Shown in pieces: positions 10,337 through 26,597 of a stretch of DNA of 59,773 nucleotides. The stretch is from Chiloscyllium plagiosum. Lineage: Eukaryota. A program made the position numbers and the translations under genes. How positions within the stretch are numbered: the first letter of the stretch is position 1; each line of letters starts with the position of its first letter. The stretch is from positions 73,927,828 through 73,987,600 of the forward strand of contig NC_057718.1 of the NCBI RefSeq assembly GCF_004010195.1. The letters run 5' to 3'. Below the pieces are notes generated by a model. The model saw only the letters and a program-made list of their open reading frames with translations. It was not told the DNA's origin and made no database searches.

Positions 10337-12993
10337 ATTGAATGAACTACTGTGTGCTGTGATGCCTTCAGTTGGGTCACAATGAGCCTCAGCACATCAA
10401 GGAAAGTGAAGTCCGAGAAAATCAGTTCTTTATGCTTAATCCCTCTCCAGTCCACATCTCTTTCTCTGCTGTATTCGGACAAGAGGCCATAAGCAAGCAA
10501 AGTGAAAAATCAGTAGAAATCTTGTTTGTAAAGGTTTATTTCAAGAAATTATATTGCAGGAGTCTGAAAAGCTTTCTGGGAAACAAGGAAAAGGACCTAA
10601 GGGAATAATAACCCCTGGTCTGAAAGCTAATGGCAAAACTTTGTAGATGAATTGAAGTTAAATCTTTGATATGACCTTCAGATGATTAGTTGCACCCATT
10701 TTACCAGCTTGACCTTTACTGTCAGTTTGAACTTGTTCTGTATGAAGCTATAAGGCTGGTCTTTCATACCAAGTAAGCAGACGCCCAGTGCCCTAATTTT
10801 CATTATGTTAATTCATTTCACTCTGAGGATTACTGGAAGCTATAGGCAGGATAGAGCATTGAAAATAGTTTTGTGTCACTAAATTGCTGAGGACTGTATG
10901 GGTGGCAGTCGACTGTTTGTGACTGTCTTACAGCTAATGACTTGGACCTTTCGATCTGCCATTGAAAAAGTGACTACCTCCTCTTGTCTGCTGAACCAGG
11001 TCAATGTGCACAGAAATGACAAAACATCTGTAGTACACTGTATAGAATTATTGTGTAGACCAAAGTCATTGCCTTCAGTCGCTGTCACAAACTTTCTTCC
11101 TTAATCATCAGTCCTTTCCCTATTAGTTATCTGAGCCTGAACCAAGTTTCAGATTGTCTATCATGTTTGACCCTGAGATGAAGTTCTGACATAAGTTGCA
11201 CCATTCCACATCTGCAACATTGCCCAACATCTCCATTACCCTGGCACATCTGCATTTACTACCTTTAGACTATTTTAATCCTCTCCTGCCCAGCATCCCA
11301 CATTCTACCTTCTGCACACTTGGTCATCCAGATCTCTGCCCTTGTCCTAACTTGTGCCAAGCCTCATTCACCTGTGATCACTTACCTAAGCCACTTTGTT
11401 AAATTTTTATTTTTAGTTAAAGTTCCTCTATGGCCTCATCCCTCCCTAAAACTGTGATCATCTTTAGTAAGATTTAAAGTACCTGCGCTTCTCCAAATCT
11501 GGTATCTTAGAGTCAAAGCGATCTATAGCACAAAAACTGGTCCTTCGGCCTATTGGGCTTGAGCTCATCAAAACAATCAAGTAACAATCATAGTTCTATG
11601 CTAAGCACTTAGTCCACGCTTTGTATGCCTTGACCTCACAAGTGTACATCTGAATACTTAAATGTAATGGTTTCTGCCTTTTACTGCCCTTCTAGGCAGC
11701 ATGTTCCAGAAATTTCTAATTTAAGTTGTTATATGATTGATTACCATTATTTTAGTTGCCAAGCCTTCAGCTCTACAAACTCTTTGCAAAAACTTCCTTG
11801 TGCCTCTTCTTTTCTGTTCTCATTTTAAGATATTCCACTTTTTCTTTGACCCAAGTGTTTGGCTATCTGCTGTATTGCTCCTTCATGTGCTCAGTGTCAA
11901 AACTCTTTAGTTGTGTTCTTGAGAACCATTTTGGAGATGTTTTACTCCGTTAAAGACACAATTTAAATGCAGTTTATCTTCTCTGTTTTCATAATTTCCA
12001 ATGGATTTGGAATTAGAATAGTTGTTGTTTTTTAACAGACATTGATGTGATAGGTTGAAGGTCTTATCTCTGTGCTGTTGATCTGTGACCTGCAGACCCC
12101 TCCCCATAATAGTACCCTCTTGTGCCTGTAGATCACTTTTTCTGCATAAATGTGCTTTCACTGTACCCGCAGACATTTAGTTCCACATTAGTACCCTCTT
12201 GTCTTTGTGAGTGCCCAGATCCATGTCAAAGCTCCTCACCTGTATCTACAGACTCCTTCACTTCTCACTCTAATTGTACTTTCTGATGCTAGATTTGTGG
12301 AATTTCTTTTACATTAATGCTCTGTCTCACTTCTGCATTATACTTTTCCTGACTATTCCTGCAGGCACCTGTCCCATGCCAAATGTTTTGCTATACATGA
12401 AGCCCATTGCCTCCATTAAGGCTCATCAACGTTTGTCAGTGCTGGCTTTACCTGCATGATGCTTCCACTGTGCCAATAGATTCCAATCTTTCTGTTATTT
12501 TCCTCCTCTCTGTTAATAGTCTCATTAAACCACTGGCTGTGTAGCAATTCAGAAGCAAAATTCCACAGTTACTGCAAATCATAAATTATTAAAAAAAGTG
12601 CTGGAAACACGCAATAGATCAGACTGCATCTGCAAATCGAAAATTCTTAACATTTCACCTTAATGTCCTTTTTTAGCATTTTGTTTGTTTTCAATATATC
12701 TCTATATTAATGTTTTTTCCTGTCTCTGTGGAACATTTCAAAAATGAGCTAAGAAAAAGCCAGGGTGCTATAGACCACTGTTGCTTCATATGAAATTCAC
12801 TTTAAATCTGTGCTCCTCATTGTTTATTCTTTTGATTGTGAACAACATCTCTCTGTCAGCCCACTTGTGATTTTGAAAGTTCCTTTCAAATCTCCCCTCA
12901 GCCACCTTCTCTATAAGGAGAGCAGTCCCACTTACTCAATTTATTCTCATAACTGAAATTTCTCATTCTTGGAGCCATTCTTGTAAATTGTTT

Positions 12994-13295
12994 TGTGCGA
13001 GATAAGCGGCTGTCCGGCCCCATCTCCGGCACTTTTATTTCCCTTCCCAGGAACAAAGACACGGAGGAGTCTGTCCAAGACTTTTCATTCAACTTTGCAT
13101 TTCCTTATATGGATGATGTTGTACAACTGTGGTTAAGGGCGGTCTCTCAACTATCGAGGAAAGCTGTTACAATTGTTTCATTCATAAAAACATGGGGGAG
13201 GTCCAGCAAGAGTTTCGAGTGTCTGCTTGTGTTTACTATAAGGTAGAAAAGACTAAAATGCAGCTAACCGTTTAAAAATTACACTACCCCCTACA
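12994..13295 (-). repeat. ERV 3' LTR (302 bp, internal 193-bp deletion)
   Basis: Matches the 5' LTR apart from loss of the 20465-20657 equivalent, about 4 substitutions and a 1-bp indel; preceded on minus strand by polypurine tract AAGAAAAGACACGGGGGATT (13296-13315). Confidence 0.95.
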
Positions 13296-13329
13296 AATCC
13301 CCCGTGTCTTTTCTTACGGCCTGTAATTT

Positions 13330-15248
13330 TTAAACCGTAAGTTTCTTCAGGGCGTTTAATAACTCCCGAGTTTGTTCAGCAAACTGCCCGTCTCTAATAC
13401 TACCCCCGCTCAAGAGGGATTCACGTTGTTCCATCTCGAGATTCATTCGTTCAACCTGCCCATAGGGAACATCCCTCTTAGTAAGGGCGGTTTCGATCAG
13501 TCGTTGAGTTAATCCCCGGACGCAGGGAATAACGCAACACCCAAGGGCAGTGAGTACCCCTGCCGCCACTATACATGAGACAAGAAAGGGAACGACCACC
13601 CCCGTCCATTTACCGAACCAAGCTTCCAACCAGTCCGTGTGGCCAGAGTCGATGCCCGAGTTTTCGGCCAGTTGGTCCGCCAATGTGGTGAGTCCATCCA
13701 GGGAGCGGGTGATGGACCCATCAGGGGCTGTGTTGTTGGGGATGAAAGTGCAGCACTGAGTGCCTATCATGACACAAACACCCCCCTTCTCTGCCAACAT
13801 CATGTCTAAGGCCAACCTATTTTCCCACGCCATCCTACTGGTGGCGTCCAGTTGTTCTGCTATTCCTTTCACTGCATCCCGGGTATAATTAATGAACCTC
13901 TGCTGATTGTAGTAAATATAATTAATCCAATCCACGTTCTTATTGATGGTCACCCACCAGAACAGTGACGACTCAAAACCCGCCGCTATCTGGTTCCTAG
14001 CCTTGTATTTGTCAGGAACACCCCTGGGGACCCCTATGGATCTAAATATATGTTATCATCGAAAGAGGTCTCCAAAGCTCTCTGTTTTTCCACTGGAACG
14101 GGGTTGCTCTTGTTTTTCGAATGCCAGGGTGAATGGGATGGCCAATTGAACGATTGCACAAGTGCCCGTCCATTTTTGGGGCAGGGTCGGTCGCAGAACC
14201 CTCCCACCACAGTACCACCAGAGGTCTGCCCTAGGCACATGAATGTGGGAGTAATTCCCGCCCCCGGTAGTTTCATTGACCAGCCGAATTGATCCGCTGC
14301 ACTTGTCAAATGTTCCCACATCGTTGTCCCACTGTAGTCCCGTCCGAGAGCCGCAGGCCTGGTGCGTACCCGTTACCCCTGAGAATGATGGCGGGCGGGG
14401 CGCCCCCTCAAACCTGACGGGGGGAAACTTCAAACTCAAGGGTCGACAAGTGGAGTCGTTCCAGGCCTCTCGGTCCTGGTACAGTCTTATCATGCAGTCC
14501 AAGGCTCGTGGGTGTTTCTCCCATCCCAGCGGGAATGGGACCACCTGAGGGTTAGGGCGGGCACTCGTGCATGCGTAGCAATCACTCTTTTTCATGCTCC
14601 TCACAGTATATTTGACCCATTCCATCCAGGCATTCGCCTCCCCGTATCCCTTCTATTTCAAAGGTCTTTTCCAAATCCGTCACCTCAATTATTCTAATCT
14701 TTTCCTGCTCATCGGTGGCCGATGAGCCCCCAGACTCAGCTTCAATGACCGTGATATACGTGCAGCACAGCTGCAACCCCTCCTGTCCTGCCTGGCCCCC
14801 AACCCTAATACCCAGTATTGTTCCATTAAGGCTCGCCCCGTTGTTTCCCAAGTTCTTTATGGTCAGAGCGGATTGCACTGATTCTGCCCACAATCCTGTC
14901 CAGGGGTGATGGGATCACGGACAACTGACACCATAGCCTGGACCCCGGGGGCTGGAGGCCTATTTATGCCTTCCCTACCATGCAATTGTAATACTAACAT
15001 CTGACCCTGGAATCCCCTTTCTCTCTCTAGGTTCCGCTTAGTTTGATACAGTTCACCTTTAGTCCTACAGGGCACCAACCCACATAGGTCTAAGCTAAAT
15101 GTCTGTGTTGGCTTGTTGGCAAGCACGGAGATGGAGAACCACTGACGGTCCTCTGCTTGTTTTTTCCGGAGGCCAAATTGGGTAACACGCACACTATGAC
15201 CCAGCCAAGGATAATGGCATAGCAAGTTAACAATATGATTGACCGCAT
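13330..15248 (-). pseudogene. env: ERV env (gamma-type SU/TM, ERV-Pb1/PABLB-like)
   Basis: Signal peptide MRSIILLTCYAIILGWVIVCV; CYAC (CXXC); LWWYCGG; IGVPRGVPDKYKARNQIAAGFES; ISD ENRLALDMMLAEKGGVC; CX6CC CVMIGTQCC; TM helix; several frameshifts in SU, open from ~14037 to 13330. Confidence 0.95.
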
Positions 15249-15316
15249 TTTGTCGCGACACCTGTAGCCAGAGGGCACAGTTCCTTTAGACTCGCCAAAG
15301 TCCGATTAGTTTGTTC

Positions 15317-18300
15317 TCAGGGTCTCTGTTCCATAGATGCCTTTGTCAGAGAGGTTCGTTCGTCCTCCGTCGGTTGTGGCACTGGTCCCTTGACTCGAGT
15401 GTAGTGTGTCCAGCCCTTTTCGGTAGTCAAAAGTACCAGGAAGGGACTGTCCCAAGTTGGTTCGAGGGTACGTTGCTTCCAGCTTTTAATCAGGACCCAC
15501 TGACCCGGCTTGACGGTGTGCACCGCAAACTCGAGGGGCGGCGTCTGTGCCAAAAGTCCCTGTTGGCGTAAACGAAATAGAGCAGACCCCAGAGCCACCA
15601 CATATTTTTGCACAAACATATCCCGAGACTCGAATAAGGGAGGTTCTCCCTTCGGCCCATGGAACGGGAGGCCAAACAGCATTTCGAAAGGGGAGACGCC
15701 CAAATCCCGCCTTGGCTGGGTGCGAATTTGCAACAGGGCGAGGGGTAGGCATTTGGTAACTCTCTTCAGCCCCTGCCTCCCTTCCCAAGAGATGGGGTAT
15801 TGGTGCACTCTGACGTCGGGGCTCTGGGGCTTTAATTTTACCTCCACAGGTCGAACTGCGAGCCCCCCTCCGGTTCCCTTTGGCGACCCAAACCCTAGGG
15901 TCTATCTCTGTCAATCGGGACTCACTAAGGTATGACATGGTAATGGCTAATTCTTCCTCTTCTCCCACTTCTATTCGTAATCCGAAACGGACTATCAAAT
16001 CCCGTCCCAACAACCCATAGGGAAGGTGCGGGAGGTGAAGGAGTTCCACTTAGAGCTCCTCCTCCTCCAGCCGCAAGGGCTGTGGTTCAAATATTCTTGC
16101 ACTGAAAAGCTGGCGGCCATCGGGTAAGGTCCACTTCCCTTCCCTATCCTTTGTACCCCCCAGAGACGCAAGGAGAGTTTCTTCTTTTTCAGTAAACGTG
16201 GGCACTTCGGTAATTTCGGATATCTGGGGAATCCTTACCAGGCAGTTTATTACTTCCTTCCCCCTCCCGGCCAATTTTGCCTGTTCATCTGCCAATTGGT
16301 TCCCCAGGGTCTCTATTTTATCGTCTTTCTGGTGCCCTTTCACATGTACTACAGCAATCTCTTGTGGCAGCAACAAATCCTCCAAGATCATGGCTACTAG
16401 TTCCTCGTGCACCAACTTCTTTCCTCTGCTATTTATCATTCCCCTTTCCTTCCAGATCTTCCCAAAGGTGTGTACTACCCCAAAGGCATACTTAGAGTCA
16501 GTGTATATTGTCCCGGCTATTCCCTTTAAATTCCTCAAAGCCCGGTGCAAGGCGTACAATTCGCACGTTTGTGCGGGCCAGGCATTCGGTAGCCGTCCAC
16601 TTTCCACTAATTCCCAACCAGTCTCACTAATGACTGCATAACCGTTGTGTCTTTTCCCATCTATCACTCGAGAGGACCCGTCAATGTACCACCGCCTTCC
16701 TGCATGTAAGGGGGTGTCCCTCAGATCTTCCCTCACTTTACTCTGGTACTCTATTATGTCTGAACAGCAGTGTTCCAGTTCCTCCTCCCCTTCCCCTTTC
16801 CAAAGGAAGTCCGCCGGGTTCTGGCAGCCCCCGACTTCTATTCGGAGGTCCTCTCGGTCTAACAGTATGGCTTCATATTTCAGAATTCTCGAATCAGTCA
16901 GCCACCTTCCAGCCTTCTGATTCAGGATAGTTCTAACCTGGTGGGGAGTAGTGACTGTCAAGGGGGCCCCGAAAGTCAACTTCCTGCTTTCCTCTACCAG
17001 CTTTGCCGTGGCTGCCACCGCTTGGACACACTCCGGCCACCCTCGGGAGACTTGTTCCAGAATTCTTGACAGGAAAGCCACGGGCTTCCTTTTTCCCCCC
17101 CAATCCTGGGTCAATACTCCAAGAGCGGTTCCCTTCCTGGAGTTTACAAAGAGACGAAATGTCTTACTAAAATCCGGCAAGCTTAAAACAGGTGCGGTCA
17201 TCAATTTTTCTTTTAGTATTCCAATTACCTTTTTCTCCTCCTCCTCCCATTTTATTCTGTTGGGTGCCTCCTCAATGAGTTTTAGGTCCAAGTCTTTAGT
17301 AAGGGGGGCATAGTCGTCTATCCATAACCGACAATAGGCTAAGAGTCCCAAGAACTTCCGCAACTCCCTCTTGGTTGTTGGGAGGCCTAGTTCGATTATT
17401 GCCCGCACTCTTTCCGGACTTATTCGTTTCTGTTCCTGACTTATCAAGTGTCCCAGGTACTTAACCTCTTTCTCGACATATTGGAGCTTCTTCTGACTCA
17501 CTCTTAACCCCTTCTCAGCTAGGTAATTTAAGAGGGCATTAGTCCCAAGTAGGACGTCCTCCTCCGTGGGTCCGGATAAAAGGAGATCGTCCACGTATTG
17601 TTTAAGCTTAAGGGCCGGGGACAAGGTTAGTCCTTCCAATAATTGTTCCAGAATCTGCCCGAACAGAGTCGGGGACTCAGTGAATCCTTGGGGGAGCACG
17701 GTCCACCTGTACTGCTGTTTTCTGCCAGTATCAGGATCCTCCCATTCGAAAGCAAAAAGATCCCTACTGTCCTTGTCCAGGGGACACGCCCAGAAGGCAT
17801 CCTTTAAGTCTATAACACTAAACCAGCCGTGGTCCGGGGGTATTCGCCCCAGAATAGTGTATGGGTTCGGTACCACAGGGTGCCGTACTTGGACAATTTT
17901 ATTTATTTCCCTTAGGTCTTGGACCATTCGGTAGCTCCCGTCCGACTTCCGGACTGGCAGGATGGGGGAATTGTATCGTGACATACAGGGCTCTAACAAT
18001 CCATCTTTTACTGGGTCTTCCATAACTGTCTTCAGGCCCTGCCTCCCTTCCCAAGAGATGGGGTATTGGCGCACTCTGACGTCGGGGCTCTGGGGCTTTA
18101 ATTTTACCTCCACAGGTCGAATTGCGAGTCCCCCCGGTTCCCTTTGGCGACCCAAACCCTAGGGTCTATCTCTGTCAATCGGGACTCACTAAGGTATGAC
18201 ATGGTAATGGCTAATTCTTCCTCTTCCACTTCTATTCGTAATCCGAAACGGACTATCAAATCCCGTCCCAACAACCCATAGGGAAGATGGGGGAGGTGAA

Positions 18301-18556
18301 GGAGTTCCACCTGGAGCTCCTTCTCCTCCAGCCGCAAGGGTTGTGGTTCGAATATTTTCGCACTAAAAACCCCACCCTTAACTCCTGAAATGTTTAATGT
18401 TTTAGCTTGGAAGCCAACCCCCCTAGGATGGAGGGGAATTGGGGACCTGCCGGCGCCTGTGTCAACTAAGAAGGTAACATCTTGTCTAAATGGGCCCACC
18501 CGTAAATTTACCAGGGGTTCTTGGTAGGCCCGTGTTCCGATCCTCCCCTGACTTCC
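15317..18556 (-). pseudogene. pol: ERV pro-pol (protease, RT, RNase H, integrase C-terminal remnant)
   Basis: FLVDTGA protease; LPQG and YVDD RT motifs; RNase H DGSS/TDSKYAF/HVKGHQ/GNQLAD; frameshift in a G-run ~18130-18135; IN HHCC and DDE region replaced by 15757-16108; IN C-terminus LPLALLQIRTQPR...SPFEMLFG...WDSPF retained. Confidence 0.95.
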
Positions 18557-19616
18557 CTAATCCATTTGTTCACGCTCCATTTCAGACATCCCATCCCTTT
18601 TAAACTCGGGACAATCCCTTTTGAAGTGTCCCAGTTTCCCGCAATGGTAACATCCGGCCATCGGAGGCCGCTCAATTCCATAAGATCCTCCTCTCTCACT
18701 TCTGCCCCGTCTCGCTTCTCTCCCCCTCCAACTTTTCTTCGACATTCCTCTTTCCACCCCATAACCTCCCTCCCCCATTCCGGTGGACTTACAAGCATCC
18801 CGTACGGCTGCCACCATCATTTTTGTCTTATGTTTCACCCTTATTACATCCCTCTGAACGTACACCTTCTGTGCTTCCCGTAATAATTCTGCAACATCCT
18901 TTTCAGCCCAATCCTCCACTTTCTGTAATTTCTTCTGAATGTCAGGCCTTGACTTAGTCACAAAGTGCACCTTAAGCATGCCCTTGCCTATTTCCCCATC
19001 GGGGTCTAAACCTGAATACTTTCGCATGGACTCCCGCAAACGGTCTAAAAACTCACTCGGGGATTCATCCTTTTTCTGTCCAACTTCGAATGCTTTCGCT
19101 AAATTCCGCTGTTTGGGCACGCAGGTTTGGATCCCCCTGATTATAAGGCTTCTGAGATCTGTCATATTGGCCCGTCCCCCCGCGTCGTTATGATCCCACC
19201 GTGGGTCCTCTAAGGGGTATTTCTGCTCTCCACGCTGAGGGCCGTCCTGATGCTCCCTATCCCAAATGGCCATTGCACTATTCCGGATCATAACAATTTC
19301 ATCGTAATTAAATAGTATTCTCATCATGGCCTGCAATTAGGCTCTTGTGTATATACTGGGCCCCAGAAATTGATCCAGTTGTATTCCCACACTGATGGCG
19401 TCGTCCAGTAGACGGGGTAGTTCATTACGGAGTTGCCGGATATCCCCAGAATTTAAAGGTTGTACTACGAACCCAGTCCGTTCGTTCCCAAACGGCACCT
19501 CTCGTAAGGGGTTCAGCTGTTCAATATTGTCACTCCTACCAGCTCTCAATTCCTCTTCTCGACCTTTCCGCATCTCGAGTCGGACTGATTTCCTAGTGCC
19601 TGGGGTGGGTCCTGCG
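18557..19616 (-). pseudogene. gag: ERV gag (CA-NC part; N-terminus lost in N gap)
   Basis: Major homology region QKKDESPSEFLDRLRESMRKY, single CCHC knuckle CYHCGKLGHFKRDC; one in-frame premature TAA at 19337-19339; ends at TAG 18557-18559. Confidence 0.93.
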
Positions 19617-19908
19617 NNNNNNNNNNNNNNNNNNNNNNNNNNNNNNNNNNNNNNNNNNNNNNNNNNNNNNNNNNNNNNNNNNNNNNNNNNNNNNNNNNNN
19701 NNNNNNNNNNNNNNNNNNNNNNNNNNNNNNNNNNNNNNNNNNNNNNNNNNNNNNNNNNNNNNNNNNNNNNNNNNNNNNNNNNNNNNNNNNNNNNNNNNNN
19801 NNNNNNNNNNNNNNNNNNNNNNNNNNNNNNNNNNNNNNNNNNNNNNNNNNNNNNNNNNNNNNNNNNNNNNNNNNNNNNNNNNNNNNNNNNNNNNNNNNNN
19901 NNNNNNNN
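19617..19908. other. Assembly gap (292 N)
   Basis: Run of N between ERV leader repeats and gag. Confidence 0.99.
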
Positions 19909-20060
19909 GTCCTGGTCTTAGACGCCCAAAGCGTTTTCACAGATGACCGTCAAACCACAATTTCCCGTGGTTTATCTTCGGTCCTGGTCTTAAACGCCTA
20001 AGACGTTTTCACAGATGACCGTCAAAACCACGTGGCCAACAAGGAAGAACAAAAAAAATC

Positions 20061-20070
20061 TCTTACCTTG
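20061..20070 (-). promoter_or_regulatory. Probable ERV splice donor for env mRNA
   Basis: Minus strand CAAG|GTAAGA in the leader between PBS and gag. Confidence 0.6.
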
Positions 20071-20337
20071 TTCCGTGCACGGAGTTGTCTGGCCTTTTTA
20101 AATGTGTGTACCCTCGTGTATAGTCACTAACCGGTCGTCCCAACACTCGTCCGTGTGTTCCTTTTCCAGGATTCAAAATTATTTTTAAATAAGCCGGGTC
20201 ACATCCTCTCTTGGCCGACGGCCGACGGACCAAGCTGATCAGTGAGAAGTATAAATATATACTAGACGCGTCTTTGTTGTGATCAGGCTTGATCCGTGAG
20301 CCGAAGAGACTGCCCCCCCCCCGGCAATAATTATTTC

Positions 20338-20355
20338 ATCCCGGACGAGCCCCCA
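20338..20355 (-). promoter_or_regulatory. ERV primer binding site, tRNA-Pro
   Basis: Minus strand TGGGGGCTCGTCCGGGAT, the canonical 18-nt tRNA-Pro PBS (as in MLV), 2 nt from the LTR end. Confidence 0.97.
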
Positions 20356-20357
20356 AT

Positions 20358-20853
20358 TGTGCGAGCTAAGCGGCTGTCCGGCCCCATCTCCGGCACTTTT
20401 ATTTCCCTTCCCAGGAACAAAGACACGGAGGAGTCTGTCCAAGACTTTTTCATTCAACTTTGCAAAGTCGGGTGTTGTTCCCGTAGGTACACACACAAAC
20501 ATAGTAATCTCCACGCATTATATACACGTATATGTGGGCTGGGTCGCCTACTGCTGTCTTGACCAATGAGTGCTAGGGTTCCCCACTGTTTTCCTTATTT
20601 GGTGCCTGCGATTATTTTGTTATTCACTTGGCCAATTAGTGTTCAAGCTCCCCGTTCTTTCCTTATATGGATGATGTTGTACAACTGTGGTTAAGGGCGG
20701 TCTCTCAACTATCGAGGAAAGCTGTTACAATTGTTTCATTCATAAAAACATGGGGGAGGTCCGGCAACAGTTTCGAGTGTCTGCTTGTGTTTACTATAAG
20801 GTAGAAAAGACTAAAATGCAGCTAACCGTTTAAAAATTACACTACCCCTTACA
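20358..20853 (-). repeat. ERV 5' LTR (496 bp)
   Basis: Direct repeat of 12994-13295; minus-strand TATATAA (~20518-20524), CCAAT-type motifs, AATAAA (20398-20403); followed by PBS. Confidence 0.95.
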
Positions 20854-22309
20854 GTTTCGCACACACTCAAGTATGTTCACATCTCTGCTGTAATGTGGCA
20901 CCCATAGCTGTGCACAGCGTTCCAGCTGAGGTCTAACACATGTCTTGTACAAGTCCCATATAGCTTCCTGCTCTGATACTCTGTCTTTATTAATAAAGTT
21001 GAGAATTCCAGTTTGACTGTTCTTTTCATCTGTCCTGCCATCTTCAATGATCAGTGCCCATTTACACCTGGGGCTCTCTGTTCGTGCACCCACTTTAGAA
21101 TTGTACCCCTTATTTTGTATTGTCTTTCAATATTCTTCCAACCAAATTCATCAGCTCACACATGTGTATTGAACCTCATCTGCCACCTGTCTGGGCACAC
21201 CAGCTCCTTTGGATCTATTAAGAGTTAATGAACGTAACTCGCATGAAGGTTTTGCTCAAATATTTTGTTTCTGAAATGATTTCAGATGTTGCTTTTTCTA
21301 TCCAAACATGACTGCATTCCCTCTCGACCAGTGTATACATGATGCATGACCAAATGGTACATGACCAAATACGATCCATAATTTGGATCCTAACATGCGC
21401 AATTCAGGTTGTGAATTGTGCCTTAATGAGCAACAGTACATCAGTGGTCAAGCGCCTCTTCTATGCATCATACGCATCTTTTGCTTTATGCCATTCCCAT
21501 TTCAATTTTTTTTTCTTTGGGGACATGAAAAAAAAACACTGGCTGGTAAGATTGGGGAGAATCCCAAGATATTGTATAAGTGTATTAAAAGTAACAGAAT
21601 AACCAGAGAAAGAATAGATCCATTAGGGACCAAGGGGACAATTTTTGCATGGATCTGGAGGACATTAGTAGGGTGTTCAATGCGTACTATACATCTCTTT
21701 CATGGGACTTTGTTGAAAGTCTTTTGAAATTAATCTCATCCACTGTCTCTGCCTGATCAACTCTTAATTACATCTTCAGAACAATTGTGTAGATTTGTCA
21801 AGTGTAATTTCCTTTTTGTAAATCCATGCTGACTGTGTCTAATTCTACCACTGTTTTCTAAGTGTTCTGCTATAAAATCCTTGATAATGGACTTCAGTGT
21901 TTTCCCCGCTACTGATTTCTAACTTGGTGTTCTATAATTCCCTTTTTTCTCTTGCTCCCTTTTTAAATTGTGGGCTTACATTAGCTACCTTCAAATCTGT
22001 AGGAACTGATCCAGAGTCAAAAGATGACTACCAGGATGTTGCTTAGGGTGGAGCAGTTTAGCTATGAAAAGGGACTGGATAAAGTCAGTTGTTTACATTG
22101 GAGCTGATTAAGGAGCATGGACAGGGTGGATAGGAAGCAACTGTTTCCCTTCGTTGAAGGCAATTGAAGATTTTATTATTAGAACTTAAATTTCACCAGC
22201 TGCAATAGTGGGATTTGATTCGCTCTCCCAGAGGTTTACCTAGGCCTCTAGATTACTAGTACTCTGACATTACTACACTGCCACCAACACCCCTGAGTGC
22301 ACACTTGAG

Positions 22310-25039: not shown

Positions 25040-26597
25040 TTGTGAGAAGATTTGTAGCTCAGGTGCTCGTTGCTGTGGTTCTGTTCGCCGAGCTGGAAGT
25101 TAAACGTTTCGTCCCCTGTCTAGGTGACATCCTCAGTGCTTGGGAGCCTCCTGTGAAGCACTTTTCTATGGTGTTTCCTCCGGTATTTATAGTGGCCTGT
25201 CCCTGCCGCTTCCGGTTGTCAGTTTCAGCTGTCCGCTGTAGTGGCCGGTATATTGGGTCCAGGTCTGTGTGTTTGTTGATGGAGTTTGTGGATGAGTGCC
25301 AAGCTTCTAGGAATTCCCTGGCTGTTCTTTGTTTCGCTTGCCCTATAATGGTAGTGTTGTCCCAGTCAAATTCATGTTGCTTGTCGTCTGCATACACGTA
25401 TCTGACCCAGAGTTTGGGTTGAATTTCTGACCCAGAGTTTGGGTTGAATTTCTGACCCAGAGTTTGGGTTGAATTTCTGACCCAGAGTTTGGGTTGAATT
25501 TCTGACCCAGAGTTTGGGTTGAATTTCTGACCCAGAGTTTGGGTTGAATTTCTGACCCAGAGTTTGGGTTGAATTTCTGACCCAGAGTTTGGGTTGAATT
25601 TCTGACCCAGAGTTTGGGTTGAATTTCTGACCCAGAGTTTGGGTTGAATTTCTGACCCAGAGTTTGGGTTGAATTTCTGACCCAGAGTTTGGGTTGAATT
25701 TCTGACCCAGAGTTTGGGTTGAATTTCTGACCCAGAGTTTGGGTTGAATTTGTGGTAAGATTGTTTGTTCTAACCTTTGCATTACTGCTTCTGCTATGAG
25801 TCCCGGTGAGCCAATGCTTGTTCCGTTGATTTGTTCGTATATCTGGTTGTTGAATGTGAAGTGTGTTGTGAGGCACAAGTTCAGTAGTTTAAGTATGCCG
25901 TCTTTGTTGATGGGTTCAACGTCCTGTTGTCTGTTATGTCTGTTCAGCAGGTTGGCTATTGTTTCTCTGGCTAGGGCTTTGTCAATAGAGGTGAACAGTG
26001 CCGTTACGTCGAATGAGACCATGGTTTCTTCCTTGTCTATGTGTATATTTCTGATGATGTCCAAGAATTCCTGTGTTGATTGTAGAGAGTGTCTGGATCC
26101 GCTGACCAGGTGTTTCAGTTTCTGCTGTAGTTCTTTGGCCAGTTTGTATGATGGTGTCCCTGGCAGTGGAGGAGGTTTACCAGGATGTTGCCTGGTATGA
26201 AAGGAAAATCGTATGAGGAAAGACTGAGGCACTGTTTTTTCGCCAGTTTGTGTGATGGTGTCCCTGGTGGTGATACTATGGGTCTGAGTGGGATGTCTGG
26301 TTTGTGCACTTTAGGTAGTCCATAGAATCTGGGGGTATTGTTGCTTTCAGGTTCATTCTTTGTACGTCCGACCTGGTTATCTGTCCGTTTTTTTGTAGGT
26401 TCCTCAGTGTGTTGTTTATCCTATTGGTGAGCTGTGGGGTGGGGTCAAACTCCCTCTTTTGGTAGGTGTTGGTATCTGCAAATAGTTGTTGTGCTTTTTG
26501 GATGTACTCTGCTTTGTCCAGGATGACCGTCATTCTGCCTTTGTCTGCTGGTAGTATGATTTATGTTCTTATCGTTTCTTAGTGATTTTAGTGATTT
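25040..26597 (-). mobile_element. Penelope-like element (second family), 5'-truncated and internally deleted, nested in a CR1
   Basis: RT motifs [44 protein letters not shown]; endonuclease C-terminus HEFDWDNTTII...REFLEAWHS; TAGGAAGGGT TSD (25030-25039, 26598-26607). Confidence 0.92.
25401..25750. repeat. Minisatellite, 14 perfect copies of 25-bp TCTGACCCAGAGTTTGGGTTGAATT
   Basis: Counted directly; no spacers; unit is Penelope RT coding sequence (IQPKLWVR). Confidence 0.97.

Follow-up and report, generated by a model that had tools for sequence, protein, structure and literature searches.

A shark endogenous retrovirus in which a segment likely derived from a pol-deleted subfamily stands in place of the integrase core, possibly through template switching

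Retroviral deletions with insertions, on which the original paper is said to be that of Pathak and Temin in 1990, are among the closest described parallels to the provirus reported here. In these products, much as we propose below, a lost part of the genome is replaced by viral sequence via template switching (PMC3187697). The review in question describes both deletions with insertions and inter-molecular non-homologous recombination as template-switch products, and classes the former under intramolecular switches. A second parallel is provided by the mouse IAP 1-delta-1 elements, a non-autonomous subfamily that has been amplified, depends on helper proteins and has in common an internal deletion leaving an in-frame fusion (PMC6466679); in these respects they resemble the defective subfamily described below. 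Recombination between competent and defective RNAs packaged together, with normal target duplications, has been described for the C and D types of cattle ERVK[2-1-LTR] (PMC10924933) and for koala recKoRV (PMC6112702), and is likewise comparable to what we propose for the shark locus.

The window, by which we mean the whole 59,773-nt stretch of Chiloscyllium plagiosum DNA that was analysed, contains one minus-strand provirus at 12994-20853. Its features, in the order in which the provirus reads, are as follows:

20358..20853, minus strand: 5' LTR, 496 nt, TG...CA, the family's type-1 LTR
20338..20355, minus strand: primer-binding site, tRNA-Pro type as judged from the sequence
19617..19908, no strand: assembly gap of 292 N in the leader/gag region, the sole gap in the window, within the provirus
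18557..19616, minus strand: gag (Gag_p30, zf-CCHC), interrupted by a stop at 19337-19339
18023..18369, minus strand: copy B, the native C-terminal half of protease and start of RT
16109..18158, minus strand: RT, tether and RNase H plus about 54 further codons, MLV-like (class I)
16108..16109, minus strand: junction J1, 1-nt overlap, in frame into protease residues, unique to this locus
15757..16108, minus strand: copy A, the inserted protease/RT-start segment, 352 nt
15756..15757, minus strand: junction J2, the in-frame pol deletion shared by a defective subfamily, 1-nt overlap
15711..15756, minus strand: interval of the putative homologous crossover returning to the full-length backbone
15317..15756, minus strand: integrase C-terminal part (MLVIN_C)
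13330..15300, minus strand: env in broken pieces, with TLV_coat in its TM part, start approximate, type-1 (full-length) lineage
12994..13295, minus strand: 3' LTR, 302 nt, with a private 193-nt deletion
12990..12993, plus strand: target-site duplication GTTT, 4 bp, partner at 20854-20857

The family to which the provirus belongs is a class I (gamma/epsilon-like), MLV-like group of endogenous retroviruses. The order LTR-gag-pro-pol-env-LTR, the primer-binding site and the target duplication, which had been correctly predicted to be of 4 bp, are features of class I, as are Gag_p30, the MLV-type integrase C-terminus and the gamma-type env TM; the primer-binding site (20338..20355) is presumably like that of MLV. 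Scanning of six frames with Pfam revealed Gag_p30, zf-CCHC, RVP, RVT_1, RNase_H, MLVIN_C and TLV_coat, the last of these at 25.9 bits, barely above its cut-off of 22.5. Comparison of the RT with solved structures gave an MLV-group p80 RT as the best match (E 1e-158), with a foamy match at 1e-49. A protein search with the whole pol frame returned 284 matches, and the top named relatives among the best 120 are ERV proteins of sharks, birds and reptiles. The single close relative among these best 120, P0015 from Chiloscyllium punctatum, is 97% identical over 367 residues and runs on into integrase at the point where the window breaks (J1). A tandem array with a 25-nt period is present elsewhere in the window (about 25326-25850), outside the provirus.

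The LTR pair differs, as originally predicted, by four substitutions in 302 aligned nt (1.3%), but the prediction missed that 193 nt of the 5' LTR (20465-20657) are missing from the 3' LTR at 13099-13100, where the break is blunt with zero overlap. Analysis shows this deletion to be a later lesion or a mis-assembly at the window locus; it was found in no other LTR among the 40 scored from 255 candidates. Two further features of the family were observed. The leader contains a 73-nt tandem repeat (19909-20031 in the window; 7194-7496 in L038; 1161-1585 in L040) whose number of units differs from provirus to provirus and which adjoins the assembly gap, and arrangements of env, LTR and leader with doubled LTR starts (L043, 236-1202; L041, 81-599 and 8624-9005) suggest either tandem proviruses or mis-assembly.

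The Pfam scan of six frames of the window provirus gave no match to the integrase zinc finger or core, in agreement with the predicted absence of the HHCC and DDE regions. Sibling proviruses have 566-591 nt between the anchors of the two junctions (591 nt in 5/9), and Integrase_H2C2 and rve were both matched in this inter-anchor part of two sibling stretches; in one sibling, all of the H-H-C-C and D,D(35)E residues precede the point at which the window resumes. Copy A stands in place of approximately 591 nt of integrase sequence encompassing HHCC and D,D(35)E. The break had been predicted to coincide with the end of RNase H. However, the Pfam RNase H match comprises residues 490-629 of a 702-aa frame and J1 lies in codon 684, about 54 codons beyond it, a position which we take to be probably within the integrase N-terminal extension rather than at the RNase H end. 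J1 has a 1-nt overlap and is in frame, and a stop 18 codons on (16050-16052) closes the frame. Relative to siblings, the retained integrase C-terminus is shortened by a small deletion, accompanied by the repeat of a 9-nt stretch (15415-15423).

The proposal that 15757-16108 is a second copy of the protease/RT segment is borne out by alignment: between copy A (352 nt) and copy B (18023-18369, 347 nt) there are 15 substitutions and a pair of indels, one of 2 nt (15869-15870) and one of 3 nt (15962-15964). The third-position bias noted near 16108 was also recovered, with 7/10 substitutions within 16026-16104 falling at third codon positions. The origin of each part was analysed with a set of 50 loci, of which 32 were used (two are the window itself and 16 are covered by longer stretches). 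Of nine diagnostic sites, seven have the deleted-subfamily letter in copy A, and eight have the full-length letter in copy B. In a tree of 30 rows, copy A groups with the six deleted copies long enough for inclusion (100/99), and copy B with 22 full-length copies; a tree in which A and B are constrained to one clade is rejected, at a borderline level (AU p=0.048). The diagnostic sites and trees support the prediction that copy A would be a foreign piece and not an in-place duplicate, and duplication in place was rejected because A and B do not group together.

Superimposing these lineages on the differences between the two copies is informative with respect to selection. Eight of the 15 A/B substitutions track lineages (seven synonymous, one non-synonymous), and seven are private or recurrent (two synonymous, five not; Fisher p=0.04). 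In protease, fixed differences between lineages are 9 synonymous to 1 not, compared with 28 to 81 for singletons (p=1e-4). The predicted source of copy A, a sibling virus under purifying selection, is thus right in that the lineage differences are mostly synonymous (7:1), and wrong in that the donor is a defective derivative and not a replication-competent strain. That signature of purifying selection was most likely left by the functional type-2 parent from which the deleted lineage derives.

The defective lineage was identified by searching the shark's own genome, in which seven other loci run directly from the protease/RT-start segment into the integrase C-terminus. A 23-nt pattern spanning J2, searched with up to two mismatches, occurs at eight genomic places including the window (reversed control, 0), and in all eight the break is at the same nucleotide, with a 1-nt overlap and the frame kept from RT start to integrase C-terminal part. 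Upstream, the gag-pro sequence of the deleted loci is ordinary; the pol sequence missing from them amounts to about 2.5 kb (2504 nt relative to L037). They form their own clade, with a mutual divergence of 0.9-3.7% over the shared segment, and one of them has both flanks and its own 4-bp target duplication. These loci are a non-autonomous subfamily, defined by the in-frame pol deletion of about 2.5 kb and devoid of RT, RNase H and integrase core. Variants shared within the subfamily (synonymous/not: protease 3/1, RT start 0/2, integrase C-terminus 0/1) are not numerous enough for selection after the deletion to be demonstrated. The LTRs of the family fall into two types that are 18-29% apart, and the internal stretches compared are about 85-96% identical; L045 and L046, both of them deleted copies, carry LTRs of type 2, which are 2-3% from those of a full-length type-2 copy (L049) and 18-29% from type 1.

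Because J2 was inherited from an existing deleted subfamily, the window provirus requires only one new non-homologous joint and one homologous crossover, contrary to the prediction that both junctions were made in one event. New formation of both junctions, each through a non-homologous switch to a replication-competent sibling strain, or duplication in place, would be in keeping with a piece that is foreign and diverged under purifying selection. Nevertheless, the identical nucleotide at which J2 occurs in seven other loci argues strongly against new formation, and the type-2 gag, env and LTRs exclude descent of all seven from the window provirus, leaving such an origin highly improbable.

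On the other side of J2, 34/34 diagnostic sites from 15710 to 14819 are of full-length type, and the window groups with type-1 full-length copies in the trees built from either flank. Diagnostic sites and trees together reveal that two distinguishable parental genomes contribute segments to the provirus, and the approximately 350-400 nt which replace the integrase N-terminal and core region are likely to come from the separate pol-deleted subfamily. An exact crossover at 15711-15733 was considered and dropped, given that a full-length copy (L064) has the window's letters at 15740 and 15734 and that donor-like letters are present at 15637-15638, where the window matches deleted copies and just 2/23 full-length ones, within a second donor-like patch (15637-15647). 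Since 1/24 full-length copies shares the letters from 15740 to 15687 and this second patch is present, the crossover is not narrowable within 15711-15756.

We propose, with a probability of roughly one half, that the window provirus is a recombinant that arose in a particle containing full-length and deleted RNA, by two template switches of which one was homologous and the other non-homologous. Minus-strand synthesis would copy env and the integrase C-terminus off the full-length RNA, switch homologously to the deleted RNA inside 15711-15756, and pass the inherited J2 into RT start and protease (350-400 nt). A jump at J1, with a 1-nt overlap, would then bring it back onto the full-length RNA, some 0.6 kb further on than the point of exit, and RNase H, RT, protease and gag would be copied from there. 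The product would be inserted by integrase that the particle already contained, with the usual 4-bp duplication as the result. Integrase is one of the proteins of the particle, and a clean target duplication is accordingly unremarkable; the suggested supply of integrase in trans is true but ordinary. The deleted subfamily, too, was able to integrate despite lacking genes for RT and integrase, and the same is to be expected of every retroviral genome that depends on a helper and has no working integrase gene.

Several observations favour this template-switching route: the donor subfamily exists, the insert carries its junction intact, the backbone is full-length on both sides, and the two lineages recombined before integration elsewhere in the family, in a provirus with its own target duplication (L031). 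Against it, a homologous exit was available at the native protease, which is 94% identical, the J1 overlap is merely 1 nt, copy A is a mixed tract, and the 193-nt LTR lesion lies at the same locus. Non-homologous switching is, in addition, at least 1000-fold rarer than homologous switching (PMC3187697). The mixed character of copy A is evident from full-length alleles at 15980 and 15996, and from the identity of A and B, apart from a 3-nt gap, over 15870-16025 (18134-18286 in copy B), three diagnostic sites included. This identity, over about 15870-16025, may reflect B-to-A gene conversion or homogenisation by the assembler. Forced copy-choice was rejected as the source of the mosaic within copy A, as it needs reciprocal alleles and A and B share the same ones.

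The singularity of J1 bears on two alternatives to template switching. Whereas a search for the junctions at other loci, as originally suggested, found J2 at its eight places, J1 is spanned by 1/40 scored genome matches, i.e. the window itself, with 32 ending on the RNase H side and seven on the protease side, and 11/11 siblings with the J1 anchor continue into integrase. A protein search with the 89-aa frame across J1, in a collection poor in short proteins of this family, returned one candidate and no scored match. Of the sequencing runs listed, 20/23 contain part of 15700-16500, at most 0.49 of the sampled words, and are uninformative on J1, which is known from one assembly.

J1 might, then, be an assembly chimera, the true provirus having an ordinary integrase and the gap being filled from an unassembled deleted-subfamily locus. 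The fragmented state of the assembly (101,977 contigs) and the position of the window's lone N gap inside the provirus are compatible with such an error, as are the occurrence of 6/7 deleted copies on contigs of about 1-4 kb, the sibling back-jumps that adjoin gaps, the uniqueness of both J1 and the 193-nt LTR deletion, and the homogenised middle of A and B. However, a 1-nt overlap would offer an overlap-based assembler nothing to join, the integrase core is normally assembled in 20 sibling stretches, and with about 32 full-length against seven deleted copies, a full-length copy would be the likelier filler. J1 is also in frame (1 in 3 by chance) and lies in gap-free sequence that is continuous with the unique left flank. 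We consider a chimera unlikely, albeit worth bearing in mind.

Repair after integration would similarly generate a junction unique to one locus. A break in the integrase gene would be followed by invasion of a deleted-subfamily provirus by one end at 15711-15756 and copying of about 400 nt through J2, the other end being joined nearly without homology (J1). The pair of junctions that such repair should leave, a single homologous one and a single near-blunt one, is the pair observed; private blunt deletions are common among siblings, with one in the window's own 3' LTR, and one-sided invasion with SDSA has been described in plants (PMC9299229). There is, however, no close donor among the seven deleted loci, from each of which copy A differs at 8-16 sites (3.2-4.3%), a divergence similar to or greater than that within the subfamily (0.9-3.7%), although the donor may be unassembled or lost. 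Nor is copy A younger than the backbone, with five private substitutions in 352 nt compared with 40 in 5965 elsewhere in the provirus (0.67%; P=0.09). The lack of a close donor and of any deficit of private changes fits an old event, and repair, too, seems unlikely to us.

Template switching between the two lineages is suggested independently by two other loci. L031/L055 (G000:C8:44918578-44926588) is a deleted-subfamily provirus with a type-2 interior, type-1 LTRs and 3' env, and the target duplication ATGT; its LTRs are type-1 at both ends and 2.3% apart, and this swap at both ends points to mixing by reverse transcription before integration. The same locus has a 767-nt back-jump adjoining an N gap. 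L008 (G000:C26724, 1-1232), known from a 1.2-kb contig, is a deleted genome in which a 319-nt RT piece replaces about 150 nt of gag, with overlaps of 9 and 15 nt, and is the reverse mosaic of the window. More speculatively, and on balance doubtfully, the pol-deleted lineage could be a 1-delta-1-like parasite, its in-frame protease/RT-start/integrase-C fusion kept since translation aids packaging, which moved from type-2 to type-1 helpers by recombination; the window provirus and L008 would then be reciprocal fossils of single particles with both genomes.

Provided that J1 is genuine, the locus preserves, in the germ line of a cartilaginous fish, a legible trace of a defective retroviral genome recombining with that of a helper. 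It also exposes a defective subfamily not found by title in the literature searched; no description of the shark family was found there by title either, and one may be catalogued in subscription journals or supplements. The locus extends known behaviour to a new host group and changes no model.

Compared with the deletions with insertions of the review (PMC3187697), the shark insert has a defective and recognisably different sibling as its source, the two switches include a homologous one, and the product is a germ-line fossil rather than that of a single-cycle vector. The IAP 1-delta-1 elements are class II and env-less, with a 1.9-kb gag-pol deletion, and a role in cis has been shown for their fusion (PMC6466679). 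The shark subfamily, in contrast, belongs to class I and retains sequence of gag, pro and env; about 2.5 kb has been lost from within pol, seven copies were found, and any role of the fusion is putative. Finally, recKoRV (PMC6112702) has unrelated elements as partners, whereas the partners in the shark belong to one family and the protease/RT start is doubled within one provirus.
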